Origin: an uncultured Rhodobacterales bacterium
GTDB taxonomy: Bacteria; Pseudomonadota; Alphaproteobacteria; Rhodobacterales; Rhodobacteraceae
Reading direction: 5' to 3'
Assembly (NCBI GenBank): GCA_964594465.1
Contig: CAZQMR010000001.1
Coordinates: 1-47,078, forward strand
Length of the DNA stretch: 47,078 bases
The stretch's first letter is position 1; every line of letters starts with the position of its first letter. This document shows, one piece after another, positions 21,443-47,078 of the stretch. The notes under the pieces were generated by a model. That model was not told the DNA's origin. It made no database searches and saw only the letters and a program-made list of their open reading frames with translations. A program made the position numbers and the translations under genes.

Positions 21443-21467
21443 AGTTTTTCCTCCCACTTGTTGTCGT

Positions 21468-23360
21468 TCAATTTGGTGCAGTTTCCATTTCGATGAAGGC
21501 CACTGAGAAGGCCGACAAGCTGAGCTTTTCGGTCTTTGTCTGCGCTGCGTTCGCGAGCCAATCGGGTGACGCCGTTGCGGCATCGAAAGATTGGGCGTCA
21601 AGAATTGTGACGCTAGCCGCTTGCCCCAGCAGAATTTCCTTCGTTGTATCGGTCGTGTTCGCCATCATGATCCGCGCCGCCCCGGCGATCAAAGCACCGT
21701 ATCCCGAAACGCCATCGCCAATTCCCGCAATCGAAAGGCGAGGGTGCCCGGCCATCAGACATGCCTCGCGCACAACGTGGAACAGCGGGTAAACCGCGCG
21801 CCTGGCCCCGTCATACCCAGCTTGCGGATAGTCATTTGGCTCATAACAAAGCCCAAAGGGCCCGACCGGAGCGCCAAGGCAGATCGCTTCAACATTGCTC
21901 TCATAGGTCGCCGCCAGGACCCCCACTGCGAAGGCGGATCCAAACAGACCGCGATGACGTGGTTCGATCTTTGCCATCGTGCGGCGCACCTGCGCGGGGT
22001 TTTGAGCAACTGCCGCCCCGTAAGGGTTGGACCGCATCCCAATGCTGGATAACCCAAGGCGATAGGGGAGACCCTTTGCCATTGCGTCCGTACTGGAAAA
22101 AATCTGTGGCAGAGCCTCAAGCGTTTCCAGAACGGACATGTCATCGCCGGCATGGACAAGCGGCGTCAGGCTGTGCGTAACGTAGTCACATTTGGAGACG
22201 TCTGGCCGATATCGGTTCATCTCGGTAAAATTTGTCAGCATCCCGCCACCGATCATGGACTTGGGAAAGGCTTGTCGAACTGCATCAAGGATGTCGTTTG
22301 GCGCAGCGCCGTCCGGCCATGGCCCGACCGGCTGATGGCTACCAAGATAGGCTTCAGGAAGGGCGATAACCCGCCTTGGCACAATGCCGTGATTTTCAAG
22401 CGCCGTTGCCAGTTCTTGAAGGTCGGATTCTGCACGTGTGGCGGCAGGAAGGACGATTTCTAAATCGATAATTTCCCAACCACGCAGGAAGTCTGCCAGT
22501 TTATCGATCCTATCCAAGTTCGGCGTTGTTCGCAGTAAGACATGCGAAAACCCGCTTAGGGCGATGTCAGTCTTGGGCAACCAATCGGCTTCAAGCGCAA
22601 GTCCGACGTCGATCGCGTTCTCTTTGGTTTGCGCAACGTGCAGAGCGGTTTTTACTGCACCAGCATCTGACGAAACAGCGTCGCCATCACAGGTTATGCG
22701 AACTGATTGTTTCGTGGGCTGTGAAATTTCGTAGGTAAAGGGATAGACCAATGGCACACAGTAAGTTTTGTAAGATGCGTCCGACCAGTTTCTTTGGTCT
22801 TCCATCTCAAAAACTTCGCCGCCAAAGACGATGGCTACACCTTGTCCGCCCAATTCGTACTTCAGTTCTGATATGTCTTTGACAGGCTGGTCGGGCTGAA
22901 TGTGAAGTGGAAAGCGCGTGTTTTCCCTGGTTCCGTTCGAATGCGTTACAGCGAGCGGAGACCCTGCAACGCCTTTGATTGGATGCAAAACGGTAAAGCC
23001 AGCTCGATTGGTTGCAAACGTACCGTTATTGGGCGTCATCGTCAGCTCCGCAACAATAACGCCTTTGGAAGAAGCGTGGATGTGCAGGTCACACGTCAGT
23101 CTGCCGCCGCCAACAGCGAACTTCAGTCCAGCCTCGAAATCATGGGTGGTTTGGGACCATTCATCGACAATCTCCACCGGATAAGTGCCCCAATTTTCAT
23201 CTCGTATTGGCCACGCCAACGCACGCACCAATTCGGTCCCATTCCATGAGATGCGCCGCAAGCCCTCTTGTGAATAAAAAAACGAAAGTGGACCGGTCGT
23301 CACCCTCCGCAGTGCAGGCAGGGACTCGCCAGTTCCATAGAGTTTCTCAAGAGCGTTCAT
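21468..23360 (-). CDS. Conserved-looking protein of unknown function (~630 aa); first gene of the second CUT1 ABC operon
   Basis: Long, uninterrupted ORF with coding-like composition. ATG at 23360 (TTG at 23369 is an alternative). I recognise no catalytic motif. There is no signal peptide and no TM segment. Confidence 0.7.
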   Translation of the reverse strand: MNALEKLYGTGESLPALRRVTTGPLSFFYSQEGLRRISWNGTELVRALAWPIRDENWGTYPVEIVDEWSQTTHDFEAGLKFAVGGGRLTCDLHIHASSKGVIVAELTMTPNNGTFATNRAGFTVLHPIKGVAGSPLAVTHSNGTRENTRFPLHIQPDQPVKDISELKYELGGQGVAIVFGGEVFEMEDQRNWSDASYKTYCVPLVYPFTYEISQPTKQSVRITCDGDAVSSDAGAVKTALHVAQTKENAIDVGLALEADWLPKTDIALSGFSHVLLRTTPNLDRIDKLADFLRGWEIIDLEIVLPAATRAESDLQELATALENHGIVPRRVIALPEAYLGSHQPVGPWPDGAAPNDILDAVRQAFPKSMIGGGMLTNFTEMNRYRPDVSKCDYVTHSLTPLVHAGDDMSVLETLEALPQIFSSTDAMAKGLPYRLGLSSIGMRSNPYGAAVAQNPAQVRRTMAKIEPRHRGLFGSAFAVGVLAATYESNVEAICLGAPVGPFGLCYEPNDYPQAGYDGARRAVYPLFHVVREACLMAGHPRLSIAGIGDGVSGYGALIAGAARIMMANTTDTTKEILLGQAASVTILDAQSFDAATASPDWLANAAQTKTEKLSLSAFSVAFIEMETAPN

Positions 23361-23402
23361 TTTATTCAATCACCGAACCCACGCAACATCGTACGTAACA
23401 TA

Positions 23403-24215: not shown

Positions 24216-24315
24216 TCATTCCATTTTTTTCGACCAAATCTCAAGGTATCGGATTATAAGTCAACTGAATTGATCTTCTCTGACGTTGACCTTAACCAAA
24301 GCCAAGAGTAGTAGA

Positions 24316-24330
24316 TACTGGTATGATGAG
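24316..24330 (+). promoter_or_regulatory. Shared box copy e: TACTGGTATGATGAG (13 nt upstream of the kinase ATG)
   Basis: One mismatch in the TATAAT core relative to copies a and d. Confidence 0.5.
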
Positions 24331-24342
24331 GTGATATATAAC

Positions 24343-25710
24343 ATGAATTCCCCTGCTGCCAACAAATTCCGTCGACCTTTGGTCGCTTGGCTAGGAGATG
24401 ATTTCACTGGAGCCGCCGCCGTTATGGAGGTTTTGAGCTTCGCCGGACTGCCGTCAATCTTGTACTTATCCACACCTGACGCAAAGGCTCTAGAAGAAAA
24501 CAAGGACTGCGTGGGGATTGGTATCGCTACTCTCGCGCGGTCAAAATCACCGGATTGGATGGAAGACAACCTTCCAGCGGTTTTTGAGTTTCTTGATCAG
24601 ACGGGAGCCGAACTGGTGCACTATAAAATCTGCACCACGCTCGACTCTTCACCATTGGTTGGATCGATCGGCAAAGCCATTGATCTGGGCCTAAAACATT
24701 TTGGAGAAGCCGCAGTTCCGGTGGTGACAGCAGCCCCGCAAATGAGACGGTATCAAGCCTTTGGGTCTTTGTTTTGCTCAGCTGCCAACGGAGTATACCG
24801 GCTCGATCGCCACCCGGTCATGGCCCATCATCCAGTGACACCGATGGATGAAGCGGATGTCGCCCGCCACTTAGCAAAGCAAACGCAAAGGCCGACGGGC
24901 TGCATAGATCTGGAGGATCTTTCAGAGCAGCGCGCGGCTCAGAAGCTGGAAAGTGCCGCGCAAGTCTGGACCCTTGATCTGACAGCCGCCGAGCAACAAG
25001 CAGAAGTGGGTCGCCTGCTTTGGGAGCGGCGTAAAGACAGCCGCTTTGTTGTGGGGTCTCAGGGTATTGAATACACGTTGGTCTCTTATCTGCGCGAGCA
25101 GGGCATAATCGAGTCAATCGCCCCTCCACCTGGTCTTGGGCGAGACAACAATTTTGCAGTCGTATCCGGCTCGGTATCTCCAACCAGCGCTGCGCAAATT
25201 GCTTGGGCACGCGAAAACGGTTTTGCCGCAATCCGGCTTAACGCGGCGCAGCTTTTATCTGGCGATGCCGCAATGGTGGAGGATCAGGCGTTGTCCGAAG
25301 CAAAGGCTGCTCTTGCAATAGGCAAGCCGCCCATCATCTTTACTGCGGAGGGCCCCGACGACCCAACCCTGGACGAAGTCAATAAAGCCGCGTCAGGCGA
25401 CATGGATCATGCAAATGACCTGATCGGCCAAGCGCTTGGTAGGATCATGCGGGCTTTGGTTATTGATCTTGATCTGCGACGCATCGCCGTATCGGGCGGT
25501 GATACATCTGGCCGGGTCTGCAAGGAATTGGGCATCTATGCATTGGTCGCGGTTTCTCCGACCATCCCTGGGGCTGCAATATGCCGAGCACGTGCGAACG
25601 GCAAATTAGACGGTCTCGAAATTGCACTGAAAGGCGGCCAGATGGGTTCGCCCGATTATTTTGGCTGGGTGCGCGATGGAGGCGGGGTTTCGTCGCAGCG
25701 ATCAGCTTAG
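24343..25710 (+). CDS. DUF1537 'four-carbon acid sugar kinase' family protein
   Basis: ATG at 24343 in ORF 24286-25710. N-terminal 'VAWLGDDFTGAAAV' and C-terminal nucleotide-binding 'IAVSGGDTSGRV' are motifs characteristic of the OtnK/DtnK/OiaK family. Confidence 0.8.
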   Translation: MNSPAANKFRRPLVAWLGDDFTGAAAVMEVLSFAGLPSILYLSTPDAKALEENKDCVGIGIATLARSKSPDWMEDNLPAVFEFLDQTGAELVHYKICTTLDSSPLVGSIGKAIDLGLKHFGEAAVPVVTAAPQMRRYQAFGSLFCSAANGVYRLDRHPVMAHHPVTPMDEADVARHLAKQTQRPTGCIDLEDLSEQRAAQKLESAAQVWTLDLTAAEQQAEVGRLLWERRKDSRFVVGSQGIEYTLVSYLREQGIIESIAPPPGLGRDNNFAVVSGSVSPTSAAQIAWARENGFAAIRLNAAQLLSGDAAMVEDQALSEAKAALAIGKPPIIFTAEGPDDPTLDEVNKAASGDMDHANDLIGQALGRIMRALVIDLDLRRIAVSGGDTSGRVCKELGIYALVAVSPTIPGAAICRARANGKLDGLEIALKGGQMGSPDYFGWVRDGGGVSSQRSA

Positions 25711-30172: not shown

Positions 30173-30358
30173 CAATCCTCCCACTGCGAATAATTATGCA
30201 TTGTCGAGATTAAATGCTAGGCGAAGGATATGAGCCTGTCAACGTCCCAAAACATTTCAGCGACCTAAGACTGATGTAAGCTGCTAACCTCTCAGAACGG
30301 CTTGACAGATTCGGTATTGCATGTTTTCTTATATGTGAATTTTTATACAGGGACGCGT

Positions 30359-31180
30359 ATGAACTCCGCTCAACTCCGTGCTCAAGCCAACAAGATGAGG
30401 CGCCGCGATGTGCAAGCCGTCTATGAGGCGGGTGCGGGGCATGTGGGTGGCGAAATGTCTGTTATGGATCTGCTCACAGCGCTCTATTTCGACATTCTGT
30501 CCGTGGATCCCGCCGCGCCAAATGACCCAAAGCGTGACCGCTTTGTGCTGAGCAAAGGCCACACAGCGCTCGCGCTCTACATCGTGCTGTCCGAACGGGG
30601 CTTCATCCCGAAAGAGGAAATCAAAACCTTCCTGCAGCCCCATTCGCGCCTCAACGGTCACCCAAACCGAACGAAAGTCCCCGGCGTGGAAACCAACACC
30701 GGTCCTTTGGGCCATGGCCTGCCCATAGGCGTTGGCATGGCGCAGGCAGCCAAGCTGAACGGCGAAAGCTGGCGCACTTTCGTCATCACTGGGGATGGTG
30801 AAATGCAAGAGGGCTCCAATTGGGAAGCCATCATGGCCGCCGCTCAGTTCAAGCTTGATAACCTCACGCTCATCATTGACCATAATCGCCTGCAACAAGG
30901 CGCGCGTCTTGCCGACACCAATGACCTTGCACCGCTTCGCCCCAAGCTGGAGGCTTTTGGCTGGGCGGTTCAGGAAATTGACGGCCATGACATGGATGAG
31001 ATCTGCACCGCGCTGGCAGCCGACAAGATAACGCTGGGCAAACCGACCTGCATCGTTGCCCATACGAACAAGGGACACGGCATTTCCTTCATGTCGGACA
31101 ATGTCGCTTGGCATCACAAAGTTCCCAACGAGGTGCAGTATTGGCAGGCCATGGCCGAACTTGAGGACGCCGCCCCATGA
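30359..31180 (+). CDS. Transketolase, N-terminal subunit of a split transketolase (copy 2, canonical motifs)
   Basis: 'GAGHVGGEMS', 'SKGH', 'GPLGHGL', and 'GDGEMQEGSNWEA...NLTLIIDHN'. ATG at 30359. Confidence 0.9.
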   Translation: MNSAQLRAQANKMRRRDVQAVYEAGAGHVGGEMSVMDLLTALYFDILSVDPAAPNDPKRDRFVLSKGHTALALYIVLSERGFIPKEEIKTFLQPHSRLNGHPNRTKVPGVETNTGPLGHGLPIGVGMAQAAKLNGESWRTFVITGDGEMQEGSNWEAIMAAAQFKLDNLTLIIDHNRLQQGARLADTNDLAPLRPKLEAFGWAVQEIDGHDMDEICTALAADKITLGKPTCIVAHTNKGHGISFMSDNVAWHHKVPNEVQYWQAMAELEDAAP

Positions 31181-32136
31181 ACGCTCCTTTGGAAGGTGCC
31201 AAGCTGTTTGATTGCCGCGATGCCTTTGTGAGCACACTAGAAGCGCTTGGCGCTTCAAACACAGACATCGTTGCTGTCTGCAACGATTCCGTTGGTTCCT
31301 CCAAGCTGGCAGGTTTTCGCGACAAGTACCCAGGGCGCCTGATCAATGTCGGCATCGCTGAGCAGAATATGGTCGGTGTTGGCGCGGGCCTTGCCAACGG
31401 CGGGAAAATTCCCTTCGTCTGCGCCGCCGCGCCCTTCCTGACTGGCCGCGCACTTGAACAGATCAAGGCGGATGTTGCTTATTCAGAATCTAACGTAAAG
31501 CTCGTTGGGATCAGCTCGGGCATGGCCTATGGCACCCTTGGCGCAACCCATCACTCGATCGAGGATTTCGCCTGGATCCGCGCGCTCCCGAATGTGCCTG
31601 TGATTGCTCCTGCGGATCGCATCGAAACCGCAGCCGCCGTGACATGGGCAGCGGATCATGAAGGTGGATGCTTTTTGCGCCTCAGCCGTGTTGGCGTGCC
31701 AGATCTTCTTCCCGAAGATCACAGATTCACGCTGGGCCGCGCGAACATGCTGCGCGACGGTTCGGATGTAACGATCATTGCCAACGGCACCCTAACCCAC
31801 CGCGCCCTGAGTGCGGCCGCAGTTTTGAGCGCGCAAAACATCACAGCGCGTGTTCTCAATATGGCAACGGTGCGCCCTATCGACAGCGCGGCCATCGTAG
31901 CCGCTGCAAAAGACACCAGCGCGATCCTTACATGCGAAGAACATACCGTCTTTGGCGGCCTTGGTAGTGCGGTGGCTGAGGTCGTTGTCGACCAAATTCC
32001 GGTCCCCATGACGCGCCTTGGCGTGCCCGGCATCTTTGCCCCAACAGGAGATGCAAATTTCCTCCTTGATGAGTTTGGCATGTCACCGGATGGTATCGCA
32101 CAAAGCGCAACTGAACTCCTGAAGCGAAAGGCCTGA
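31177..32136 (+). CDS. Transketolase, C-terminal subunit (copy 2)
   Basis: ATGA overlap with the upstream gene. 'NVGIAEQNMVGVGAGLA' and 'GATHHSIEDFA'. Confidence 0.9.
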   Translation: MNAPLEGAKLFDCRDAFVSTLEALGASNTDIVAVCNDSVGSSKLAGFRDKYPGRLINVGIAEQNMVGVGAGLANGGKIPFVCAAAPFLTGRALEQIKADVAYSESNVKLVGISSGMAYGTLGATHHSIEDFAWIRALPNVPVIAPADRIETAAAVTWAADHEGGCFLRLSRVGVPDLLPEDHRFTLGRANMLRDGSDVTIIANGTLTHRALSAAAVLSAQNITARVLNMATVRPIDSAAIVAAAKDTSAILTCEEHTVFGGLGSAVAEVVVDQIPVPMTRLGVPGIFAPTGDANFLLDEFGMSPDGIAQSATELLKRKA

Positions 32137-35465: not shown

Positions 35466-36665
35466 TCAATCATGCAGGTAGTTTTCCGCAAAGCTCCCAA
35501 TACTGCAACGTCTCAACCGGACATCTGCCTGAGACATTGGCAGGGTTGTCGAACCGACCGTGGGTTGATCCGACATGTGTACAATTTTCACATCAGGGAT
35601 ACCGTCGCACCAAGTGTCTGCGATTAACTTCTCGTATTCGACCGTTTCAAAGACATCACTTTTCGTGCAGAGCAAAAGCTGAAGCGCGCCATCTTTGCGT
35701 GCAATCATTGGAAAATGCTCACAAAATGTAACTGCTGCGGGTGTATTGTTTGGCTTGAAAAGAATGGAATCGATGCTGAACGTGTCTTCAGCGGCAGCAC
35801 CCCATTTCCGCTTGAACTGGAACAAGCCATCATTCGGAAATGCGCGGGTTCCTAGGAAGTTCACGAATTTGTAGCCATGTTCAAAGGCGTATTGCAGACT
35901 AAAGTAATACAGCGCTTGCATCGCGGCCACAGGAGGATTTTCAAGGAAAGCCTTAGGCATGCCTGTTGCCAAAAGGCGCAGTGTATCACCGTGTGGGAAG
36001 TAAACCCCGGCTGCTACCACGCCGTCGTCGTCAACAACTTGCACGATTGTGCCATCTCGGGCGCGTTGTTCGATTATTGCTCGGGGCGTGAGATGTGTTT
36101 CGTCTTCATGACGTGATTTTATGAAGGTTACATAGAGTGTCTCGTAAAAGCTCTTAATGATGGTCGGATCGTTCGTCGGAACGCTTCGATAGTTGTTTTT
36201 GCGAATAAGGCGGCCAATGTTCTTGCGGATCGTTTTGCGAAAGTTTTGTTTGGTTTCATCCCAAGTCGTTTTCAGGGATACGGTCATGCAAATGTAGTCC
36301 GGCAATTCGAGGTATTCGTCGTTCTTGTTTATGCGACTATTGTAGGGCCAGCCGACGTCAACGAAGACAACATCTGCATCGTGTTCTTCAGCAACAATAG
36401 CCTTATGGAACGAAAACAGGTTTGATTTTTTGGACCGGAGCGTTTCAACCTCATTGAAAAACTTCTTTTTGAAATGCGACAGGTTCAGCCGCCTGCCCAC
36501 ATAAAGCATCGTAATTGTTTCGCCGCTTATGGGCATTTGACCACGAAGGGTCACAACATCGACTTTGAACGCAAAAATCGCGACCAGCGTTTCCCGGGTT
36601 TCTTCCCACCAATGAGCAAGTAGAGCGCGCGGTTTACCCAAAACCGCAGTTAAATTCATGGCCAT
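35466..36665 (-). CDS. FemAB/CelD-like GNAT-fold acyl- or aminoacyl-transferase (tentative)
   Basis: ATG at 36665 preceded by AAAGG. C-terminal 'GYKFVNFLGTRAFPNDGLFQFKRKWGA' resembles the FK..(W/F)G motif of the BioF2-like/FemAB acetyltransferase family. The coding sequence is AT-rich compared with its neighbours. Confidence 0.45.
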   Translation of the reverse strand: MAMNLTAVLGKPRALLAHWWEETRETLVAIFAFKVDVVTLRGQMPISGETITMLYVGRRLNLSHFKKKFFNEVETLRSKKSNLFSFHKAIVAEEHDADVVFVDVGWPYNSRINKNDEYLELPDYICMTVSLKTTWDETKQNFRKTIRKNIGRLIRKNNYRSVPTNDPTIIKSFYETLYVTFIKSRHEDETHLTPRAIIEQRARDGTIVQVVDDDGVVAAGVYFPHGDTLRLLATGMPKAFLENPPVAAMQALYYFSLQYAFEHGYKFVNFLGTRAFPNDGLFQFKRKWGAAAEDTFSIDSILFKPNNTPAAVTFCEHFPMIARKDGALQLLLCTKSDVFETVEYEKLIADTWCDGIPDVKIVHMSDQPTVGSTTLPMSQADVRLRRCSIGSFAENYLHD

Positions 36666-36856
36666 TCGTGACCTTTCACAGAGGTTGTCATTTCGGTTTC
36701 CTGGAAATATTCGGCTACATTGTTCATGCCAGCACAAAGGTCACAATTCGGTTACCCAGTTTAATGCTAAGGTCGCCATGATCAACGGCATAGAGAGCCG
36801 CATTTTGGCGGTCTTCCCGAACGCAGGTCCAAAGAACCGGCTTGGCCTTTACGGCG

Positions 36857-37834
36857 TCAGCCATGCCCGTCTCTTTCTTCAATCGGTTGCCAACCTGGCG
36901 GCATAATCAGAGTGTAAAGGCGATTTTGCCATCCGCTACGTCGCCGCAGATCGCGTGCTAGAGAAATCAGTTCAAACAAACCGATGCGCACCGGGTTTTG
37001 AGTTTCGATCGGTGTGGTCAGGCCGTATTGCACCGTCTCGACCTCTGGTTCGTAGGTGCCAAATAGCCGGTCCCAGATCACCAGAATTCCGGCATAGTTC
37101 TTGTCCAGATATTGCGGATTAGACCCATGGTGGACGCGGTGAACCGAAGGGGAGCTGAACACTCTATCGAACCAGCCGAGCTTGCCGATTTTGTCGGTAT
37201 GGACCCAAATCATATAGGTAAAAACGATCAGCATGCAGACCAATACCTGCGGCCCTGAAAAACCAATCAGCACAAGTGGGATAAAAAAGAAAACAATGGT
37301 CAGATCGATCAGCCAAAAAATCCGCAAAGAGGTGCTGAGGTCATATTCTTCAGAGGAATGGTGCACGCTGTGCAAAGCCCAGAAAAAGCGCACGCGATGC
37401 TCGGTTCGATGCATCCAGTAATAGGTGAAATCGGTGGCCAGAAGGCATAGCACCCAGGTCCAGCCTGTGACCGGAATTTGTATCAGCGCATAAGGCTCCA
37501 GCCATGCAAATCCAGCAATTACAACAAGGCCGTAAAATGTGCGTTGCAGGACCAGTGACACAGCTTGAAAGGATAGATTCGCAAGAGGTTCCCAAACCGT
37601 TTTGCGGTGACCGAAATACTTGTCCCATGCGATTTCTACAAGGATCAAGAGGACAAAGAAAATGCCGATAACCTCCAGATAAGTAAGAATTTCACCTATG
37701 GTTAACAGTCGATCAAGAAAGCCCTCGATCGGGTTTTGGGCCACTGCGTCTTCAAGGTTTTCCTGTTTCAAATCAATGCCCTCACTCCAGAAGCTGTTGG
37801 GCCAGCAATACCTGCCAATTGCTAAATCTGACAC
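36857..37834 (-). CDS. Fatty-acid hydroxylase / sterol desaturase superfamily membrane protein
   Basis: Three histidine boxes, 'HRTEH', 'HSVHH' and 'HRVHH', with several hydrophobic segments. GTG start at 37834 is uncertain. Confidence 0.8.
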   Translation of the reverse strand: MSDLAIGRYCWPNSFWSEGIDLKQENLEDAVAQNPIEGFLDRLLTIGEILTYLEVIGIFFVLLILVEIAWDKYFGHRKTVWEPLANLSFQAVSLVLQRTFYGLVVIAGFAWLEPYALIQIPVTGWTWVLCLLATDFTYYWMHRTEHRVRFFWALHSVHHSSEEYDLSTSLRIFWLIDLTIVFFFIPLVLIGFSGPQVLVCMLIVFTYMIWVHTDKIGKLGWFDRVFSSPSVHRVHHGSNPQYLDKNYAGILVIWDRLFGTYEPEVETVQYGLTTPIETQNPVRIGLFELISLARDLRRRSGWQNRLYTLIMPPGWQPIEERDGHG

Positions 37835-38222
37835 TTGAAACCGGCGTTATTGGCTCTGCATATTTGCAGATAGGGTCCACATTTTCGGGCATATCGTGCC
37901 GCTTGAAATGTAACTGCTAAGTGCGCGAGAATGGTCGTGAGGGGTCTCAAAGCTGTCCGTAAGATCATGTTAAGGTTTTCGATCTAACACGGAGCAGGGC
38001 TGGGCAGAGCGTAAGTTTAAAGAGTGCTTTGAATAAGTGTTGGAGTGGGGCTAATTTGTCTATTTTATTGGTCAAGACGTTGTCTTGCTGGCTTGGCGTT
38101 GCTTGCCGAAATGTTCGGCCGGACGTGACGCGTCAATCAGATATCACGCGATTCTCATATCCCAATTCAGGCACTAGCTGCGCTTCATTGCCATCTATTT
38201 GTGAGTTTCTGCGGGGGATATC

Positions 38223-41200
38223 ATGCTTCATCAAAATGTAGCGCATTCAGGCGTAGCCGATCGGACTTCGGTTAGCCGCAACGAGCCTATTGCGATTGTC
38301 GGTCTTAGTGGTCGGTACCCCGGTGGGGCCAACTCGCCAGAGCTGCTGTGGGAGAACCTGAAGGCTGGCGTTGATGCTGTCAGTGACATCAAAGGAGACC
38401 GCTGGGATCTTGGGTGGCATAACCCCGATGCAGACCGTCTGAACCGCATCTATGCCATGTCGGCGGGTTTGCTGGACAGGATTGACGGGTTTGATGCGGA
38501 ATTCTTCGGCATATCGCCGCGTGAAGCTCAACAAATTGACCCGCAGCAAAGACTATTGCTGGAACTGGCATGGGAGACCTTTGAGGATGCAGGCATCCCG
38601 GCCCGCACTGCGGCGGGGCAGGACATTGGCGTGTTTGTCGGGATTTCCAATAACGATTACGGGCAGATGGCTGAGGCCGGGACTGCCAATGCCTATTCCA
38701 ATACAGGTGTGGCTTTTAGCATCGCGGCCAACCGTATTTCCTACATTTTTGACCTTCACGGCCCAAGCATGGCTGTGGACACGGCCTGTTCGTCAAGTCT
38801 TGTGTGTTTGCATCAGGCAGTACAGGCCATTCAGGCTGGCCAGTGTCATGCGGCCTTGGCAGGTGGCGTGAATATTCTGGCTGACGTGCGCCCGTGGCTG
38901 GGCTTTTCGCGCGCCTCGATGTTGTCACCAGATGGGCGGTGCAAGAGTTTCGATGAAAGCGGGAACGGCTATGTCCGGGCTGAAGGTGGCGGGCTGGTCC
39001 TGCTCAAGCCGCTCAAGGATGCAGAGCGCGATGGCGACCATATTCACTGCGTGATCCGCGCAACCGGTGTGAACTCGGACGGCCGCACCCTCGGGCTTGC
39101 GATGCCAAACGGCGATGCACAAACAGCGCTGTTGCGACAGGTTTACGAAGGCAACGGGATCGCGGCTGAAGACGTGTTCTATGTCGAGGCACATGGCACA
39201 GGCACATCCGTTGGTGACCCGATTGAGTGCAAATCGCTTGGCACAATTCTGGGGGAGCCACGCAATGATGGCAGCCAGGTCCATATGGGGTCCATCAAGT
39301 CCAATATCGGACATCTGGAGTCTGCTTCAGGCATTGCCGGTCTGACCAAGTTGATCCTTGCGATGAAACACCGCGAGATCCCTGCCAACCTGCATTTTGA
39401 AACACCAAACCCCAAGATCGAGTTTGAGGATTGGAAGCTGAATGTTGTGGCAGAAGCGTTGCCCTTTCCCAAGCAGGAAAAGCCAGTGGCCGTGGGCATC
39501 AACTCGTTCGGATTTGGCGGGACCAATGCTCATGCTGTGATTGAGGAGTACAAAGGCGGTGCGGTTCTCTCTGTGGAGGCTACTGCCGATACGCCGAAGT
39601 TTCTGATGATCTCGGCAAGCTCCAACGAGGCTTTGGCCGATCTGGCGCGCCAGTACATTGAGATTTTGCGCAGCCCTGACGCGGATTGGGTTGAAATCGC
39701 ATCTGGCGCAGCCCTTTGCCGTTCTACTTTGCGGGTTCGCTTGGTTGTTTCAGCTGATAATGCCCCAGACGCCGCGAAGAAGCTGGAAAACTGGCTTGCG
39801 GGATCGGAAGAGCCGGGCACGCAACTTGGCGCATCAAACGCGGTCGATGTCCAGACGGCTTTTGTCTTTTCGGGCAACGGGCCACAGTGGTGGGGCATGG
39901 GTCGTGAGTTGCTGGCGGAGAATGCACATTTTCGTGCAGAGATCGAGGCAATTGACGCGATTTTTCAGCCGCTTTCCGGGTGGTCACTGATTGATGAGAT
40001 GGCGCGAGCTGAAGCAGACAGTCGAATCCATCTGACCGAAGTGGCGCAACCGATGCTGTTTGCGATGCAGTTGGGGCTTGTCGCGGCCTTTGCACAAGAA
40101 GGGATCACGCCGTCTGCGGTGTTCGGTCATTCTGTGGGCGAGGTAGCGGCGGCCTGTGCAAGTGGTGCTTTGACGCGAGAGCAGGGCACGCAGGTCATTT
40201 TCCACCGCTCCCGTGAGCAGGCTACAACTGCCGGGTTGGGCAAGATGGCAGCGCTTGGACTTGGTGAAGAGGCTGCTGCGAAGCTGATCGCGGAAGTTAG
40301 CGGTTGGTTGGAAATTGCTGCTGTCAATGGACCCGCTGCGGTCACGGTTGCTGGGGACGAGGTGGCCCTGACGACCTTGGTCGACAGGGTGATGGCAGAG
40401 GGCAGTTTTGCGCGGCTGCTGACGCTTGACTATCCGTTTCACACCAAGGCGATGGACGGCATTCGCGATGGGCTGTTGGCGGCGCTTACTGATCTAACGC
40501 CGAGCGAAACCAACATTCCCTTTATCTCGACTGTTAGCGGGCGCGCCAAGGCGGGCTCAGAGCTTAGGGCAGAATACTGGTTTGACAACGTGCGTCAGCC
40601 AGTCAAGTTTTCACCGGCAGTATCTTCGCTGATTGAGGATCATGGGATTGCGCTTTTTGTCGAGATCGGCCCGCATCCGGTTTTGAAAGATTACGTCACC
40701 CAAACGGCACGTGAGATGAGTGCGCCAGCGGTTGCGTTACAAAGCTTGCGGCGGCCCAGTCAGCGCAGCCCGGAATCTGACAAAGATAACCATTTAGATG
40801 CGATTGCGGCGGCCCATGCGCATGGCGCGAGCCATTTGCCAAAGCTCTTTGACCGCCCAACCAAGTTGCCAAATCTGCCGACCTATCCATGGCAGCGCAG
40901 TCGACATTGGCGGGGTCGTGTTGGCCTGCCTGATATGGTCATACCTTCCCAAAAAGATCATCCGCTGCTGGGCGCGCGTCTGCCGCGCACGGATGGTTTG
41001 TGGGAAATGGCGATGGACAAGAACCTGCTGAGCTATTTGCAGGATCATGTGGTGCAAGGCTCTGCACTATTCCCGGCAGCGGGCTATCTCGAACTGTTAC
41101 TGGCCTCAGCGCGTCACAAGCTTGAGCATGAGGGTATTCTTGATATCGAAACGCTCCAAATCGAGCGTCCGCTGGTTCTGCCGGCTGACCATGATCCGCT

Positions 41201-44200
41201 GGTTCAGACCTTGATTGATAGCCGAGATGGCTTTGCGGAAATCAGCTCGCGGCGGGATTCGAGTAGCAAGGACCACACAATTCACGTGCGCGGTCGCGTG
41301 AGTGCGGCAGAGGATTGTGCAGCCCCGGTTGCGGATCTTGACGCGCTGCGCACCCGCTTGCCGGTGCATGTGACGAGTGACGCGCATTATGCGGCTTGCG
41401 TGTTTCGTGGCCTGGACTATGGCCCGACATTTCAGGGCATCCGCGACATTCAGATGACGGAACCTACAGCGCAAACGCGTGAGGCGCTGGCCCATGTCCG
41501 GCTCGACTTTCTAGCTGAGGATGGCATCGAAGGATACCGCGCACACCCATCTGTTTTTGACAGCTGTTTGCAGACGACGATTGCGCTCGTTGCGCAAAAT
41601 GACAGCCGCAACATGTCGACCCTGCCGATCCAGTTCGAGCGGGTGCGCAGCTACGCGGTGCTTCCGGCGGACGTGCTGTGCCATGTCACGATTATCAGCG
41701 AGACGCAGCGATCTGTTGTTGCTCAGATCGACATTCTGTCGTTGGACGGCACGCTTTTGTTGCGGGTCGAAGGTGGACGTTGCATCAAGGCAAATCTCAC
41801 CGGAGAGGTCCTGTCACCTCAGACATCCGAATGGTGGCGTCTTGATGATACGCACGCCAATCAGGGTGATTTGCCGCCTTTGCCGTCCTTTGAAGTGATT
41901 GCGAGTGCTGTTGGCACAACTGGCGCGGATGATGCGCCGGTGGCCGACCGGCTTGACCAGATTGCAGCACTTTATGCGGTGGATGCCCTTGATTGCCTGC
42001 GCCCGGATACGGCGCGGTTCAGCCTGTCCAGTTTTGCGCGGCATGCCCGGATCGGGCGCAAATCCACGGCGCTTTTGACCCGTTTGCTTGAGATCGCGGA
42101 GAAGGCCGGTCAGGTCACTCAGGACGGCAAGGATTGGGTTTGGAATGCGGACGCGCGTGGCTCGGTGGACGAGCTTTGGGCTGATACCTTCTGCAACCAT
42201 CCTGACCATCAGGCCGAGCTATTGCTTTTGTCAGAGCTTGGCGAAGGTCTTGTGGCCCGCCTCAAGGGGGAGGATGCGCCCGAGGCAAGTGCGGGCTTAC
42301 TGGATCAGGTGCAGGATGTGGCTCCGTTTGCGGCAGACGCCAATAGTCTGTGCCTTGATGCCCTTCGGGCGTTGGTTGAAAACTGGCCTTCCGATCGCCC
42401 GATGCGGGTGCTTGAAATCGGTGGTGGCAGTGGTGGTCTGGCGTCATGGCTGTTGCCGGTCTTCCCGGCTGAACGGACTGATTATGTGCTGACCGATCCT
42501 TCAGAGACGCATATTGCGCGGGCTGAACGTCGCCTCAAGGGACATGGATTTTTGCGGACAGCGCCGCTTTCAACAAGCCTGAGCGCGGAAGAACAAGGGT
42601 TTACGCGCGGGTATTTTGATCTGGTGATTGCGGGCGGTCTTGCTGGGTTCGGGTCGTCTGCTGCGCAGATGTTGGAGGCCTTGCGTCCTGTGCTGGCAGA
42701 TGGTGCCGTGATGCTTGCTCCTGTGCCGCCACACGGTGCTGCATCGGCGTTGATGCTTGGCGATCTGGCGGATGTTTCTGCGGGCTTGCTGGAGACGGCT
42801 GGATTTGCGCAAACTGCACAGCTTTTACGAGGGCGTTCCGGCCTCATACTAGGCCGTCATTCGCGCACCGTTGAGCCACGCCCAGCACCACAGATGGAGC
42901 GCGCGACCTATTTGCTGGTGGCCGAAGATTCGGGTGATTTTGCGAATGAAGTTAGTGCGGCGCTTTGCACAAGCGGCCATCTTGCCTCGGTCATTGAGGT
43001 TCCGACAGCAACGGGTGATGCGGCCAAAGAGCAATTGCTGGACGCGATCAAGTCGACCCGTGCGGACCATGTGGTGTTTCTTGGCGCGCAATCGCCGCAG
43101 GCGACACCCAACGGCGTGTTTGGGGCGCAATCACATCGCACGCTGAGCGCTGTTGCACTTGTTTTAGCGATGGAAGAGGCCCGTCAGGACATGGATTGCG
43201 ATCTGACGCTTGTGACCCGAGGCGCGTTCAAATCGGCCTTTGGGGGTGCCCCGCTCGATCCGGCAGAAGCTGCCCTTTGGGGCATGGGTCGTGTCATCGG
43301 CAATGAGCATTTCGGACTGGCCACGCGCCTTGTCGATTTGCACGCAAGGCAGGAAGGCCCGATTGAGGCAAACTGGCTGGCACAAGAGTTGTCCCGCCAG
43401 GATGACGAGACCGAAGTCCAGCTTGCAGCAGGCCACCGCTTTGTGAACCGCGAACGGGTGAATGCGCCCGTGGATCAGGACCAGCGAGGCCGTGGTGAGA
43501 ACGGCGCGTTTTTCCTTGATTTTGCCGCCAAAGGTGGCCTCGACAGCTTGCATTTGCGGGGCTTGGAGCGTCGTGTGCCCGCGGCTCAGGAAATTGAAAT
43601 TGCAGTCAAAGCTGCCGGGCTCAATTTCCGCGACGTGTTGTGGTGCATGGGCATGTTGCCGGAAGAAGCGGTAGAGCACGGGTTCTCCGGGCCGACCATT
43701 GGTATGGAATGTGCAGGCGAAGTTGTCCGTGTGGGGGCGGATGTCACGGAATTTGCGCCCGGCGATCGTGTGTTGTCGTTTGCGTCTTCTTGCTTTGCCA
43801 GCCATGTGGTCACGCATCAAAAATCGGTTGAGAAGATGCCAGAGGGCATGAGTTTTGCCGAGGCTGCTACAATTCCGACCACCTTCCTGACCGCATGGTA
43901 CGGTCTGGACTACCTTGCCCGGCTTGAGCCGGGGGAAACGATCCTAATCCATGGGGCTGCTGGCGGTGTTGGTCTTGCGGCAATCCAGATTGCCAAGGCC
44001 AAGGGCGCGGTTGTGATTGGCACGGCTGGCTCGCCGGGCAAACGGCGGATGCTGGAGTTGTTGGGCGTGGATCATGTGCTTAACTCTCGCACGCTGGAGT
44101 TCAGCGATCAGGTGATGGAACTCACCAATGGCGAGGGGGTCGATGTTGTGCTGAACTCGCTGGCAGGCGAGGCGATCCTCAAGGGGCTGAACTGCTTGCG

Positions 44201-45671
44201 TCCGTTTGGCCGGTTCCTAGAAATCGGCAAGCGCGATCTTTATGCCAACAGTCGAATTGGGTTGCGACCATTCCGCAATAATCTTTCCTACTTTGGCATT
44301 GATGCGGATACATTGCTTGTCCACCGTGCAGCCCTAGCTCAGCGGCTTTTTGGCGAGGTGATCGCGCAATTTGGCACCGGTGTGCTAAAGCCGTTGCCGC
44401 ATCAGGTTATGCCAATTTCCCGCGCGAGTGAGGCCTTTCGAGCCATGCAGCAGTCGCGCCATGTTGGTAAGCTTGTGATTTCGCTGGAACGTGACGCATT
44501 GGAAACCCTGCCGGTGGTGCGGGTGGCTTCATCGGTGCGCGCAGGCGGCACTTACCTTGTGACGGGTGGTCTGGGCGGCTTTGGCCTTGCCACCGCACGC
44601 TGGCTTGTGGAGCGGGGCGCAGATTCTTTGGCGCTGGTTTCGCGAAGTGGGGCAAAAAGCGATGAGGCAAAGGTCGCTTTGGCCGAGTTTTCCGAGGCAG
44701 GCATAACCGTGCGTGCCTTTGCGGCAGATGTCTCAAACGAGGCAGAAGTAGCCGCCGTGCTGGACAGTGTTCGCGCAGACATGTCTCCGCTTATTGGGGT
44801 CATTCACTCCGCCGCCGTGATCGAGGATGCACCCATTGCAAGCATGACGGCCGAACAAGTGGAACACGTTTATTTGGCCAAGATGATCGGCGCGCATAAC
44901 CTGCATAATCTGACGCAAAATGACCCGCTGGAGATGTTTGTTCTGTATTCCTCTGCCAGTGCGGTTGTCGGCAATCCGGGGCAGGGGGCTTATGTCGCGG
45001 CCAACCTTTATCTGGACGCTCTTGCCCAGTACCGGCACGCCAATGGCCAGCCAGCGCTTGCCATCGGTTGGGGTGCGATACGGGATGCAGGCTTTTTGAC
45101 CCGCAATGAAAACGTCGTGGATATGCTGAAGTCCCGCACCGGGCTTGAAGCGACCCCTGCCCAAGACGCATTGGATGACTTGGACAGGGTGCTGTCGGCG
45201 GGTGCTTCGCGTGTCAGCGTTGCACGGTTTGATATGCAGCGGCTCCAGCAGATTTTGCCAGCCGCTCAAACACCCCGCTTTGCACCGATCATGCCCAGCA
45301 AGGCTGACGCGGCACTAGCCGGTGAGGAGGATCTTGGCGAGCTGCTTAGCGCCATGCCAAAGCCCGAGCGGCGTGGGTTTGTGCTTGAGCGGATCATGGA
45401 GAACACGGCGAAAGTTCTTGGGACCTCCGCTGACCAGATCGATGCGAGCAAGCCACTATCGGATCTTGGTCTTGACTCGTTGATGGCTGTTGAACTCGCG
45501 GGTGCGATTGAACGGGATGTGGGGCAACCCATACCGGTGATGCAGCTTTTGGGCGTGCCATCACTGTCTGGCGTGGTGGATCTTGTCGCCAAAATTCTGG
45601 GAATTGAACTTGATGCAGCTCTGCCTTCGGACGCGGGTTCAGCCGATAGAGAAGACCTGAAGACTGAGTAG
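38223..45671 (+). CDS. Type I polyketide synthase, single fully reducing module: KS-AT-DH-MT(like)-ER-KR-ACP
   Basis: 2482 aa. KS aa 21-443 (nt 38283-39551): DTACSSS with Cys189 at 38787-38789, EAHGTGT, NIGHLE. AT aa ~545-835 (nt ~39855-40727): GHSVG with Ser637 at 40131-40133, YPFH at 737-740. DH aa ~910-1195: HPLLGARLP with His913 at 40959-40961, YGPTFQG. MT-like aa ~1370-1545: LEIGGGSGG at 42411-42437. ER aa ~1760-2090: HGAAGGVGLAA at 43950-43982. KR aa ~2105-2295: TGGLGGFG at 44562-44585, Tyr2257. ACP aa ~2380-2460: LGLDSL with Ser2419 at 45477-45479. There is no TE or R domain. Confidence 0.92.
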   Translation: MLHQNVAHSGVADRTSVSRNEPIAIVGLSGRYPGGANSPELLWENLKAGVDAVSDIKGDRWDLGWHNPDADRLNRIYAMSAGLLDRIDGFDAEFFGISPREAQQIDPQQRLLLELAWETFEDAGIPARTAAGQDIGVFVGISNNDYGQMAEAGTANAYSNTGVAFSIAANRISYIFDLHGPSMAVDTACSSSLVCLHQAVQAIQAGQCHAALAGGVNILADVRPWLGFSRASMLSPDGRCKSFDESGNGYVRAEGGGLVLLKPLKDAERDGDHIHCVIRATGVNSDGRTLGLAMPNGDAQTALLRQVYEGNGIAAEDVFYVEAHGTGTSVGDPIECKSLGTILGEPRNDGSQVHMGSIKSNIGHLESASGIAGLTKLILAMKHREIPANLHFETPNPKIEFEDWKLNVVAEALPFPKQEKPVAVGINSFGFGGTNAHAVIEEYKGGAVLSVEATADTPKFLMISASSNEALADLARQYIEILRSPDADWVEIASGAALCRSTLRVRLVVSADNAPDAAKKLENWLAGSEEPGTQLGASNAVDVQTAFVFSGNGPQWWGMGRELLAENAHFRAEIEAIDAIFQPLSGWSLIDEMARAEADSRIHLTEVAQPMLFAMQLGLVAAFAQEGITPSAVFGHSVGEVAAACASGALTREQGTQVIFHRSREQATTAGLGKMAALGLGEEAAAKLIAEVSGWLEIAAVNGPAAVTVAGDEVALTTLVDRVMAEGSFARLLTLDYPFHTKAMDGIRDGLLAALTDLTPSETNIPFISTVSGRAKAGSELRAEYWFDNVRQPVKFSPAVSSLIEDHGIALFVEIGPHPVLKDYVTQTAREMSAPAVALQSLRRPSQRSPESDKDNHLDAIAAAHAHGASHLPKLFDRPTKLPNLPTYPWQRSRHWRGRVGLPDMVIPSQKDHPLLGARLPRTDGLWEMAMDKNLLSYLQDHVVQGSALFPAAGYLELLLASARHKLEHEGILDIETLQIERPLVLPADHDPLVQTLIDSRDGFAEISSRRDSSSKDHTIHVRGRVSAAEDCAAPVADLDALRTRLPVHVTSDAHYAACVFRGLDYGPTFQGIRDIQMTEPTAQTREALAHVRLDFLAEDGIEGYRAHPSVFDSCLQTTIALVAQNDSRNMSTLPIQFERVRSYAVLPADVLCHVTIISETQRSVVAQIDILSLDGTLLLRVEGGRCIKANLTGEVLSPQTSEWWRLDDTHANQGDLPPLPSFEVIASAVGTTGADDAPVADRLDQIAALYAVDALDCLRPDTARFSLSSFARHARIGRKSTALLTRLLEIAEKAGQVTQDGKDWVWNADARGSVDELWADTFCNHPDHQAELLLLSELGEGLVARLKGEDAPEASAGLLDQVQDVAPFAADANSLCLDALRALVENWPSDRPMRVLEIGGGSGGLASWLLPVFPAERTDYVLTDPSETHIARAERRLKGHGFLRTAPLSTSLSAEEQGFTRGYFDLVIAGGLAGFGSSAAQMLEALRPVLADGAVMLAPVPPHGAASALMLGDLADVSAGLLETAGFAQTAQLLRGRSGLILGRHSRTVEPRPAPQMERATYLLVAEDSGDFANEVSAALCTSGHLASVIEVPTATGDAAKEQLLDAIKSTRADHVVFLGAQSPQATPNGVFGAQSHRTLSAVALVLAMEEARQDMDCDLTLVTRGAFKSAFGGAPLDPAEAALWGMGRVIGNEHFGLATRLVDLHARQEGPIEANWLAQELSRQDDETEVQLAAGHRFVNRERVNAPVDQDQRGRGENGAFFLDFAAKGGLDSLHLRGLERRVPAAQEIEIAVKAAGLNFRDVLWCMGMLPEEAVEHGFSGPTIGMECAGEVVRVGADVTEFAPGDRVLSFASSCFASHVVTHQKSVEKMPEGMSFAEAATIPTTFLTAWYGLDYLARLEPGETILIHGAAGGVGLAAIQIAKAKGAVVIGTAGSPGKRRMLELLGVDHVLNSRTLEFSDQVMELTNGEGVDVVLNSLAGEAILKGLNCLRPFGRFLEIGKRDLYANSRIGLRPFRNNLSYFGIDADTLLVHRAALAQRLFGEVIAQFGTGVLKPLPHQVMPISRASEAFRAMQQSRHVGKLVISLERDALETLPVVRVASSVRAGGTYLVTGGLGGFGLATARWLVERGADSLALVSRSGAKSDEAKVALAEFSEAGITVRAFAADVSNEAEVAAVLDSVRADMSPLIGVIHSAAVIEDAPIASMTAEQVEHVYLAKMIGAHNLHNLTQNDPLEMFVLYSSASAVVGNPGQGAYVAANLYLDALAQYRHANGQPALAIGWGAIRDAGFLTRNENVVDMLKSRTGLEATPAQDALDDLDRVLSAGASRVSVARFDMQRLQQILPAAQTPRFAPIMPSKADAALAGEEDLGELLSAMPKPERRGFVLERIMENTAKVLGTSADQIDASKPLSDLGLDSLMAVELAGAIERDVGQPIPVMQLLGVPSLSGVVDLVAKILGIELDAALPSDAGSADREDLKTE

Positions 45672-45721: not shown

Positions 45722-47078
45722 ATGGCACCAGACGGTAGAATTCCCCCATTGGAGCGGGACTATCACCCATTGGGCGCGGCTCAGGTGGCGCTCTGGTTTG
45801 ACGCGCAAATGGCAGGCACTGGCGGCTATCGGTTGGGCGGTTGGCTGAAATCTGGCATTTCGCTTGACCCCGAGCAGTTACGCCAATCGCTTCGCGTTTT
45901 GATGGCAAGGCACGATGGCCTTCGCCTGCGCATGGATGTCGACCAGCCACGACAATGGATCGCCGATAGCATTGAGCCACCACTGGAGGTCATTCGTTTG
46001 ACCGGTGACGACCCGGAAGCGCTGTTTCAGGATCAGGTTCAAAAGCTGACGCGCACGCCGATGCCCTTTGGCGATCACCCACTGTTCCTTATCCGTTTGG
46101 TGACGATTAACGACCAGAGCTTTGTGGTCTGGTGTTTTCATCATATCATTGCAGACAGCGCCTCGGTTCAGATCACCATGGGCCATTGGTTCAGTTCGTT
46201 TCAGGCTCAGATCAACCCAGAACAGGCCGCGCTTTCGCCAGTGTCCTCCATCCTGCCCACACTTCAGGAGGATGCAGCATACGCAGCCTCGTCGGGCAAC
46301 ACACGCGACCGGGCCTATTGGGCGGAACGGCTGAAAACCCGGCCCGCGCCACTTTTGGGTGAGTACCGTCCGCGCCGCTCGCCTGATGTGCTTGGCAAAT
46401 CCGTAACCCGCGACATTTCTGGGCAGGACCACGAGGTTTTGGTTCAACTGGCTGAGGATTTGGGTGTTCTGCCCAACCGCCTTCTTTTCGGTGTGATCTC
46501 AGCCGCCCTCGCCCGGCGGTTTGGGACAACGCAGATCATCACTGGCCTTGCCTTGCATGGGCGCAATCATAGCAATTTCCATGTGGTCGGCATGATGGCC
46601 GGGCTTATGCCTGTACTCACGGAGTTCGAGGATTGGTGGTCCATTGGCGATTGTGTCTCCGCGTTCAGCGAACAGATGGACGCGGATCTACTTCATCATC
46701 GCTTGCCGATGGATGCTATTTACCGCGAGCTGGGGATCACCGCGCAATCGGGCGAGGCACTTTTTGACGTCACCCTGTCGTGGATACCGGGCGGTAACCT
46801 GTCGCTTCCGGGCGCGGAATTGTTTGAAACTGGCGTGATCGACTGCCGTGAGGCAAGCCCGATTGCCATTCATGCTACAGAAAATCCCGAAACGGGTGGC
46901 ATCCGCTATCGGCTCTCTGTCAATCCAGACTATCTGGAGCAGGTCGATCCAGACATGCTGGCGGACCATATTGACGCGTCCCTTGCGCTCTATCTTGAAG
47001 ACGAGTTTGCCGATTTCGATGGGCTTCCTGTTCTTTCGTCATTTGAGCTTGGAGTTTTGTCTGGTTTTGGTGGGGGTT
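45722..47078 (+). CDS. Non-ribosomal peptide synthetase, N-terminal condensation (starter-C-like) domain; 3' end truncated by the window edge
   Basis: This open reading frame is not in the supplied track. It runs from ATG 45722 to the window end with no stop (452 codons read by hand). Condensation core motif 'HHIIADSAS' at 46139-46165. It begins 50 nt after the PKS stop. Confidence 0.8.
   Translation, partial: MAPDGRIPPLERDYHPLGAAQVALWFDAQMAGTGGYRLGGWLKSGISLDPEQLRQSLRVLMARHDGLRLRMDVDQPRQWIADSIEPPLEVIRLTGDDPEALFQDQVQKLTRTPMPFGDHPLFLIRLVTINDQSFVVWCFHHIIADSASVQITMGHWFSSFQAQINPEQAALSPVSSILPTLQEDAAYAASSGNTRDRAYWAERLKTRPAPLLGEYRPRRSPDVLGKSVTRDISGQDHEVLVQLAEDLGVLPNRLLFGVISAALARRFGTTQIITGLALHGRNHSNFHVVGMMAGLMPVLTEFEDWWSIGDCVSAFSEQMDADLLHHRLPMDAIYRELGITAQSGEALFDVTLSWIPGGNLSLPGAELFETGVIDCREASPIAIHATENPETGGIRYRLSVNPDYLEQVDPDMLADHIDASLALYLEDEFADFDGLPVLSSFELGVLSGFGGG

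Follow-up and report, generated by a model that had tools for sequence, protein, structure and literature searches.

A loader-less polyketide synthase followed by a peptide synthetase condensation domain in an uncultured Rhodobacterales bacterium: a probable maker of lipid tails

Several described systems couple a polyketide synthase (PKS) to a non-ribosomal peptide synthetase (NRPS). In the myxochromide pathway the iterative type I PKS MchA reportedly feeds the NRPSs MchB and MchC, and in the fungal highly reducing PKS-NRPS hybrids, of which the tenellin synthetase TENS is an example, the domains follow each other as KS-AT-DH-CMeT-ER0-KR-ACP-C-A-T-R. Here we describe a type I PKS gene located at positions 38,223 to 45,671 of contig CAZQMR010000001.1, from an uncultured Rhodobacterales bacterium (assembly GCA_964594465.1); "the window" below denotes the whole stretch of DNA analysed, 47,078 nucleotides (nt) in length. 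In our judgement this PKS is quite probably the first, lipid-forming enzyme of a hybrid PKS-NRPS line, in which it builds the plain fatty tail of a lipopeptide or lipo-amino-acid. In its logic, the system appears closest to MchA-MchB/C and to the fungal hybrids.

The resemblance to MchA lies in a lone, loader-less type I PKS module which resides on a protein of its own, lacks a thioesterase (TE), and ends in an ACP followed by the first condensation (C) domain of a separate NRPS. The two were compared by logic, not by sequence, and they differ in that MchA makes a polyunsaturated chain and leaves its ER unused, whereas the ER is the best conserved domain of the window PKS. With the fungal hybrids the window PKS shares the domain order, including an MT placed between the DH and the ER/psiKR (pseudo-KR) region; two relatives (L001 and L010) have the same C-A-T-R succession after the ACP, and LovB (7cpx) and PsoA (9x2c) are significant Protein Data Bank (PDB) matches of the PKS. 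Here, however, PKS and NRPS are separate, the lineage is bacterial, and an intact ER is combined with an MT that is probably dead, the opposite of what fungal hybrids usually show. In the relatives, moreover, the R domain keeps YxxxK like the reductive MxaA and is not of the Dieckmann type.

The PKS and the condensation domain behind it

The PKS gene, the domains of its product and the gene that follows it are these:

38223-45671, plus strand: type I PKS gene, one unbroken open reading frame (ORF), 2482 amino acids (aa), KS-AT-DH-(pseudo)MT-psiKR-ER-KR-ACP
38283-39551, plus strand: ketosynthase (KS) domain, aa 21-443; PF00109 and PF02801, core Pfam match 21-393, E 7e-89
39861-40736, plus strand: acyltransferase (AT) domain, aa 547-838; PF00698, E 1e-69
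40959-41789, plus strand: dehydratase (DH) domain, aa 913-1189; PF21089 and PF14765
41790-42812, plus strand: C-methyltransferase-like (MT-like) domain, aa ~1190-1530; Methyltransf_12 at 1397-1496, E 8e-11
42900-43502, plus strand: psiKR structural subdomain, aa ~1560-1760; weak Rossmann match PF22953, 1623-1723
43515-44486, plus strand: enoylreductase (ER) domain, aa 1765-2088; PF08240, PF00107 and PF13602, Pfam span 1788-2086
44547-45092, plus strand: ketoreductase (KR) domain, aa 2109-2290; PF08659 at 2109-2287, E 1e-62
45378-45602, plus strand: acyl carrier protein (ACP), aa 2386-2460; PF00550 PP-binding, 2390-2455
45722-47078, plus strand: 5' part (452 codons) of an NRPS gene, ATG at 45722 and open to the last base; N-terminal C domain, PF00668, E 2e-41

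The PKS protein starts at its KS and has no loading module. Pfam places a KS C-terminal extension and a KS-AT linker between KS and AT, and the DH, ER, KR and ACP are all above the Pfam gathering scores. The C-terminus extends about 22 aa beyond the ACP, and neither Pfam nor tblastn found a TE there. Using queries from relatives, tblastn found no phosphopantetheinyl transferase (PPTase), TE, adenylation (A), thiolation (T) or reductase (R) domain elsewhere in the window. The Pfam calls bear out an earlier note on this DNA as to the order KS-AT-DH-MT-ER-KR-ACP with an MT-like insert and a pseudo-KR, and the same calls, together with tblastn, agree with it that the window holds no loading module, TE or PPTase.

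The KS triad is present (Cys189 in DTACSSS, His324 in EAHGTGT and His364 in KSNIGH), and its motifs are kept in 76-89 of the 89 family members in an alignment of homologues. In the AT, GHSVG is found at 635-639 (Ser637), Arg662 in VIFHR and YPFH at 737-740; the DH has an intact catalytic pair, also conserved in the family, of His942 (HVVQGSALFP) and Asp1113 (DSCLQ). The NADPH motif of the ER, HGAAGGVG at 1910, is kept in all 89 family members. The KR has TGGLGGFG at 2114 and its catalytic Tyr2257 (YVAAN), and the GLDSL of the ACP supplies Ser2418 for phosphopantetheine attachment. The features expected of a full reducing module (KS triad; AT Ser and Arg; DH, ER, KR and ACP motifs) are thus all present, and Pfam and motifs together support the full reducing loop, with intact KS, AT, DH, ER, KR and ACP chemistry, that had been claimed before. 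All the motifs named in the earlier note were found at the residues it gave, although HPLLG, which it took for the catalytic motif of the DH, is an N-terminal DH motif (914-918), the catalytic His being His942.

Identity to the closest homologues differs by domain, from 80% in the ER, the highest, through 74% in the KS, 71% in the KR and 67% in the AT to 49% in the MT core and 46% in the psiKR, the latter two being among the least conserved parts of the PKS. Catalytic domains at 67-80% against linkers at 46-49% are the pattern expected under purifying selection.

The NRPS gene starts 50 nt after the PKS stop codon. No terminator-like site was found in this gap, the promoter/terminator scan having given no more matches than expected by chance. 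The ORF at 45722 was missing from the ORF listings because it runs off the end of the window; since the window is the entire 47,078-nt contig, the NRPS is cut by the assembly and not by biology. Its C domain sits at the N-terminus of the protein and has an intact active site, HHIIAD; the contig breaks off within this domain or shortly past it. The description of the PKS as stand-alone, with no release domain, therefore has to be given up, as a gene for an NRPS C domain follows 50 nt downstream and the pairing recurs in relatives.

The nearest solved structures of the C domain are the starter C domain of RzmA (7c1h/k/p) and CDA-C1 (E ~1e-19), and ordinary C domains (Txo1/2, TycC) score similarly; the entry 7C1H is RzmA (PMC7804268). 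The position at the NRPS N-terminus and the HHxxxD motif are shared with the lipoinitiating starter C domains of RzmA and CDA PSI, and the similarity is modest, as the E value shows. Known starter C domains take acyl-CoA, or acyl-ACP loaded by a fatty acyl-AMP ligase, whereas in the window a dedicated type I PKS would provide the donor on its ACP. The best NCBIfam match of the C domain was MxcG, with 67 bits against a cut-off of 2300, and no NCBIfam equivalog cut-off was reached by the PKS, the C domain or the two accessory genes described below (a hydroxylase and a FemAB-like gene).

Relatives of the pair were sought in several collections. Homologues of the PKS are full-length (2435-2551 aa) and have the same architecture; the best is 71% identical and most others 45-64%, and their hosts are Paracoccaceae/Rhodobacteraceae metagenome-assembled genomes (MAGs) and, more distantly, Rhizobiales and others. 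A metagenome scan with the PKS gave nothing closer than 56-65% identity, and the plasmid database held no close relative, its best PKS matches being 35-42% identical. With the C domain, a word-indexed protein search gave one match, an exhaustive representative search nothing above 43% identity, and a metagenome scan no relative. The literature yielded no characterised homologue; the only related statement comes from a survey of Rhodobacteraceae genomes, in which NRPS-like/type I PKS hybrids are common and unassigned (PMC10584327).

A profile of the C domain was then scanned over 185,579 species genomes, and orthologues (34-42% identical) were found in only about 14 species. The species comprise MAGs of Paracoccaceae, Rhodobacteraceae and Natronohydrobacter, two MAGs with the label Gammaproteobacteria, Bryobacterales and other Acidobacteriota, as well as Hoeflea and Ideonella. 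A PKS of the same family directly precedes the C domain in 13 of the 14 genome loci. Seven metagenome loci offer both a PKS of 50% identity or more and some DNA downstream of it, and every one of them has the C domain. By locus, an orthologous first C domain (34-46% identical; 71% in L004) follows the family PKS directly, or after 1.4 kb, in L001, L003-L017, L019 and L020, and over its full length the window C domain is 41-46% identical to the first C domains of NRPSs just downstream of PKS homologues. The PKS-then-C-domain arrangement is conserved in about 25 related loci, from Paracoccaceae to Acidobacteriota. As the pairing is kept across these loci, the PKS-to-C-domain junction appears to be a conserved functional unit, whereas the length of the NRPS varies, between C-A-T-R and four or more modules, as in the following loci:

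L001, PKS 64% identical: PPTase, outer-membrane factor, RND pump and PKS, followed by a C-A-T-R NRPS of 1435 aa
L003, PKS 53-63% identical and split in two: PKS, MATE, multi-module NRPS ending in a TE, MbtH, PPTase
L004, PKS 71% identical: hydroxylase (73% identical to that of the window), PKS, then the first 91 codons of a C-domain ORF, whose 91 aa are 71% identical to the window C domain
L005, PKS 62% identical: RND pump, fatty-acid hydroxylase and PKS, followed by an NRPS of 3511 aa that has four or more C domains
L006, PKS 63% identical: PKS, then C domain

Release in the relatives can be examined in L001, where the R domain has retained YxxxK and finds its nearest matches in a PKS terminal reductase (8v1x) and in the R domain of MxaA (4u7w, E 1.5e-37), so reductive release is predicted there. 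The 1435-aa C-A-T-R protein thus resembles the C-A-PCP-R of myxalamid MxaA and myxochelin MxcG; the R terminus is known in relatives only, and the window C domain itself scores far below the MxcG cut-off. Specificity codes of the first A domains were extracted with a GrsA reference, which as a self-check reproduced DAWTIAAICK. They read DVQNMGVIEK (L001/L010), DVENLGVIEK (L009/L012) and DVGNMGMIDK (L014/L003/L067), with an acidic residue at position 331, and presumably resemble ornithine-type codes, which we treat as a lead only. They suggest that the first A domains of the relatives take a basic amino acid. Glycine, to which a strong LgrA-A2 match had pointed, was dropped once the codes were extracted. 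The NRPS gene of L005 (17457-27386) has three modules exactly 3198 nt apart with identical tblastn statistics, which are either near-identical tandem duplications or a long-read assembly artefact. In four metagenome loci (L076, L077, L096 and L100), more distant PKSs (38-41% identical) that share this architecture have behind them a separate thioester-reductase-like gene in place of an NRPS, which suggests that these clusters are producers of fatty aldehydes or alcohols.

The methyltransferase-like domain and the expected acyl chain

The closest PDB match of the MT-like domain is the CurJ C-MT (5thy, E 6.5e-19). As in the CurJ/JamJ type of cis-AT module, the domain lies between DH and psiKR and keeps motif I, the S-adenosylmethionine motif ExGxGxG (VLEIGGGSG at 1396-1404). 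C-MTs of PKSs use a His-Glu dyad plus a Tyr (PMC9821293). In a residue-level alignment to the CurJ C-MT, the catalytic His (VLHAT) is replaced by Gly1475 and the Glu position by Val1501; a second alignment, to 7dmb, again puts a Gly at the position of the His. CurJ differs further in being one module in a long colinear line, with modules upstream.

Among the 89 aligned family members, both residues of the dyad are kept in 11, the Glu only in 28, and neither in 48. The last group includes the window PKS and all 13 of its closest homologues, the 11 dyad-keeping members being more distant, and in a Rhizobiales-like branch there is an additional 10-residue deletion in the dyad region. The domain is therefore probably a catalytically dead, structural pseudo-methyltransferase in the window lineage, analogous to the pseudo-methyltransferase of animal fatty acid synthase (FAS). 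With the dyad lost, no C-methylation is expected, and a functional C-methylating module was rejected on this ground. Inactivity of key domains, which the earlier note had named as a result that would speak against it, is predicted for this one domain, the other catalytic motif sets being intact.

The AT reads GHSVG and not the methylmalonyl-associated GHSQG, and for the second motif 64 of the 89 family members have YPFH and 25 have YAFH. HAFH is the malonyl and YASH the methylmalonyl signature (PMC6164871), and mutation of YASH to YAFH lets DEBS AT6 incorporate malonyl (PMC6090053). Phe739, at the third position of YPFH, thus points to malonyl-CoA, towards which the extender unit, previously called ambiguous, now leans on account of this residue and GHSVG. 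The possibly methyl-branched chain envisaged before is not supported, as the His-Glu dyad is lost and the AT signatures are of malonyl type. A malonyl-leaning AT, a probably dead MT and a strongly constrained ER together lead us to predict a straight, saturated acyl chain as the lipid tail.

Proposed route and its alternatives

In the route that we prefer, the PKS would be primed either with malonyl-ACP through its decarboxylation or with an acyl-CoA or acyl-ACP that primary metabolism supplies, and would extend the chain with malonyl-CoA. The KR, DH and ER would fully reduce each beta-keto group, to give a straight saturated chain on Ser2418. The module probably runs several rounds, like a FAS, and the MT-like domain, as a structural relic, would add no methyl groups. 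There being no TE, the N-terminal C domain of the NRPS would take the acyl-S-ACP as its donor (lipoinitiation) and attach the acyl chain to the amino acid that the NRPS binds first, at its amino group; with the acceptor located on the NRPS, release would be by amide formation. The rest of the NRPS would lie past the contig end and, to judge from the relatives, may be either C-A-T-R, giving an N-acyl amino aldehyde or alcohol, or a multi-module protein ending in a TE. A membrane di-iron hydroxylase and a FemX/MprF-fold transferase would probably tailor the product.

We hold with moderate confidence that the module is used iteratively. Iteration is plausible because the protein has no loading domain and no loader genes were found in the window or in the flanks of relatives: tblastn gave no adenylation-domain match in the window, and the genes called in the flanks of the Pfam-annotated L001, L003 and L005 include neither a stand-alone adenylating (AMP-binding) enzyme nor a free ACP. 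To our knowledge, bacterial single-module PKSs without a loader, such as MchA, the polycyclic tetramate macrolactam (PTM) synthases and mycocerosic acid synthase (MAS), are typically iterative.

One possible alternative, which we regard as doubtful but worth weighing, is that of a colinear module acting once. Its KS would be primed by a long acyl-CoA or acyl-ACP, a single fully reducing C2 extension would move a ready-made fatty acid to an ACP dedicated to the NRPS, and the downstream steps would be as above. The domain set is indeed that of a standard fully reducing module with a C-MT, and CurJ has the closest MT; for ancestral members that keep the dyad, one extension plus alpha-methylation would make sense as a function. 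The KS-AT didomain, too, scores higher against modular cis-AT PKSs (DEBS M3, 618 bits; CurL, 612) than against the iterative MAS KS-AT (532), a result that we counted as neutral on iteration; MAS is the overall top PDB match (9d2y, 962 bits) because more domains are covered. However, neither the window nor the annotated flanks of relatives contain a gene for a fatty acyl-AMP ligase, a CoA ligase or a loading ACP, and the iterative habit of loader-less single modules argues for repeated use. Furthermore, if the MT is dead, one round of extension with full reduction would alter the chain length only, and would thus have little purpose.

That the PKS is a stand-alone, FAS-like or MAS-like iterative synthase with no assembly-line partner, making a free or lipid-bound saturated and possibly methyl-branched acid, we consider very unlikely. 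The likeness to MAS and the MAS-like mycobacterial PKSs is real: they too are loader-less KS-AT-DH-ER-KR-ACP proteins with no TE that deliver their product to a partner, MAS is the closest full-length solved structure, and the L002 homologue stands beside a PPTase without an NRPS. MAS is not known to have an MT-like insert and uses methylmalonyl-CoA, whereas the window AT reads GHSVG/YPFH, without methylmalonyl signatures, and the partner is an NRPS C domain and not a PapA-type acyltransferase. The MT insert with its lost dyad, the AT motifs and the NCBIfam scores (Pks2, 1164 against a cut-off of 2400; PKS_plus_SDR, 1238 against 1740; other mycobacterial PKS models also far below theirs) led to the rejection of a MAS-like PKS, and the C-domain gene 50 nt downstream, a pairing seen in some 25 loci, opposes any partnerless synthase. 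An animal-type FAS was ruled out by the missing C-terminal TE (Pfam and tblastn). Least probable of all is a decaying or silent cluster, its genes intact-looking relics on an accessory replicon with no product: the degenerated MT, the lack of a PPTase in the window and the position on a repABC-type replicon amid sugar-catabolism genes would fit, but the 7.4-kb ORF is free of frameshifts, all six catalytic motif sets are intact and better conserved than the linkers, and the accessory genes are syntenic in relatives.

Several observations weigh against the hybrid-line reading that we prefer, or against parts of it. The NRPS is known for 452 codons only, its A, T and release domains lying past the contig end; the C domain shares just 41-46% identity with C domains from relatives whose architecture is known; and we infer the hand-off from ACP to C domain from adjacency alone. 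In L002 (7778-17386) the PKS orthologue, 62% identical, has no adjacent NRPS; its neighbours are a PPTase gene in divergent orientation and a gene of the class I/II aminotransferase family. The PKS can thus work with other partners, which hints that in some lineages it uses a different off-loading partner. As to the chain, YPFH is not a canonical AT motif, so that the malonyl call is a lean and not a proof, and the intact ExGxGxG of the MT-like domain leaves room for residual or altered activity. The CurJ dyad, which we take to be the His280 and Glu306 of Skiba et al. (2016), was checked only via a 24-residue PDB chain offset (the His has chain index 304).

Accessory genes, surroundings and meaning

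The genes and regions around the PKS-NRPS pair, and the two other loci that share the first of them, are as follows:

35466-36737, minus strand: FemX/MprF-fold (tandem GNAT) gene, weak PF02388 match; the database gene call is 399 aa, 35466-36665
36857-37834, minus strand: gene of the membrane di-iron fatty-acid hydroxylase/desaturase superfamily, transcribed divergently from the PKS gene; PF04116, E 1e-29
37835-38222, no strand: divergent intergenic region of 388 bp between the hydroxylase and PKS genes, with presumed promoters
11-1186, minus strand: ParA-type ATPase gene with an N-terminal MerR-like helix-turn-helix, at the contig start
L115: FemX-like homologue with a PKS and an RND pump
L116: FemX-like homologue with a ...T-C-A-T-R NRPS, MbtH, hydrolase, MFS transporter, PPTase, RND pump and a free-standing C domain

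Orthologues of the hydroxylase lie directly upstream of the PKS orthologues in L004 and L005, with 73% and 64% identity, respectively. Against the OlsE equivalog of NCBIfam the hydroxylase scores 67 bits (cut-off 475), and what the two share is the superfamily PF04116 only. Homologues of the FemX-like gene were found in two other loci with core genes of this type of PKS-NRPS cluster, L115 and L116. The AlphaFold (AF2) model of its product has a pLDDT of 87, and in Foldseek it comes nearest to transferases that depend on aminoacyl-tRNA, namely Sbb17/Sba18, FemX and, from MprF, the aminoacyl-phosphatidylglycerol synthase domain (E 1e-10 to 1e-7); as the TM-scores are low (0.37-0.50), they support the fold class only. 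Both genes are conserved accessories that probably tailor the product. In L116, a Paracoccaceae MAG, the free-standing C-domain protein is 505 aa long (13266-14783, minus strand) and adjoins the RND pump, PPTase and FemX-like gene. The divergent intergenic region of the window contains two weak sigma-70-like matches, which are not above chance.

The sole near-identical match of replicon relevance in the plasmid database is a stretch of 64-71 nt that shares 83-86% identity with repA genes annotated on plasmids of Rhizobium, Agrobacterium and Bradyrhizobium. Together with the ParA-type ATPase, it suggests that the cluster is probably located on a repABC-type plasmid or chromid. Genes upstream of 35400 serve sugar catabolism and transport and lie outside the cluster; most of this part (1222-34616) is a large carbohydrate-catabolism island unrelated to the PKS. 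The island includes two paralogous split-transketolase gene pairs (1222-3386 and 30302-32136), RpiB, triosephosphate isomerase (TIM), transaldolase, a RuBisCO-like protein (9406-10683, minus strand), a four-carbon-acid-sugar-kinase-like gene (24286-25710), an FGGY kinase, several sugar ABC transporters and GntR/SorC regulators. A 632-aa ORF at 21468-23369 (minus strand), for which Pfam gave nothing at E 0.01, shares 134 nt with the 5' end of a solute-binding-protein ORF (19994-21601), and may be real or spurious.

A basic amino acid, as suggested by the A domains of the relatives, would fit an OlsE-like hydroxylase and a FemX-like transferase. This leads to a speculative scheme, to which we give a small chance, of an undescribed amino-lipid route: de novo assembly of the acyl chain by a dedicated, FAS-like iterative PKS, addition of a basic amino acid by the NRPS, reductive release as an amino alcohol in some lineages, OlsE-like hydroxylation, and further aminoacylation by the FemX/MprF-fold enzyme with aminoacyl-tRNA. 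If true, it would be a way to an ornithine-lipid-like surface or membrane lipid by assembly-line logic, and not by OlsB/OlsA.

The cluster is of an ordinary kind, material for genome mining, and does not overturn current understanding. A bacterial PKS that is fully reducing, lacks a loader and passes its chain straight to an NRPS C domain would be useful for engineering the lipid tails of lipopeptides, and a FemX/MprF-fold enzyme recruited into a PKS-NRPS cluster offers a study case. The PKS family presents a graded series of C-MT decay, from an intact dyad through the Glu only and neither residue to the deletion, in parallel with the animal FAS pseudo-methyltransferase. If expressed, the cluster should yield an unknown lipopeptide or N-acyl amino-acid derivative from the poorly mined Paracoccaceae-like alphaproteobacteria.

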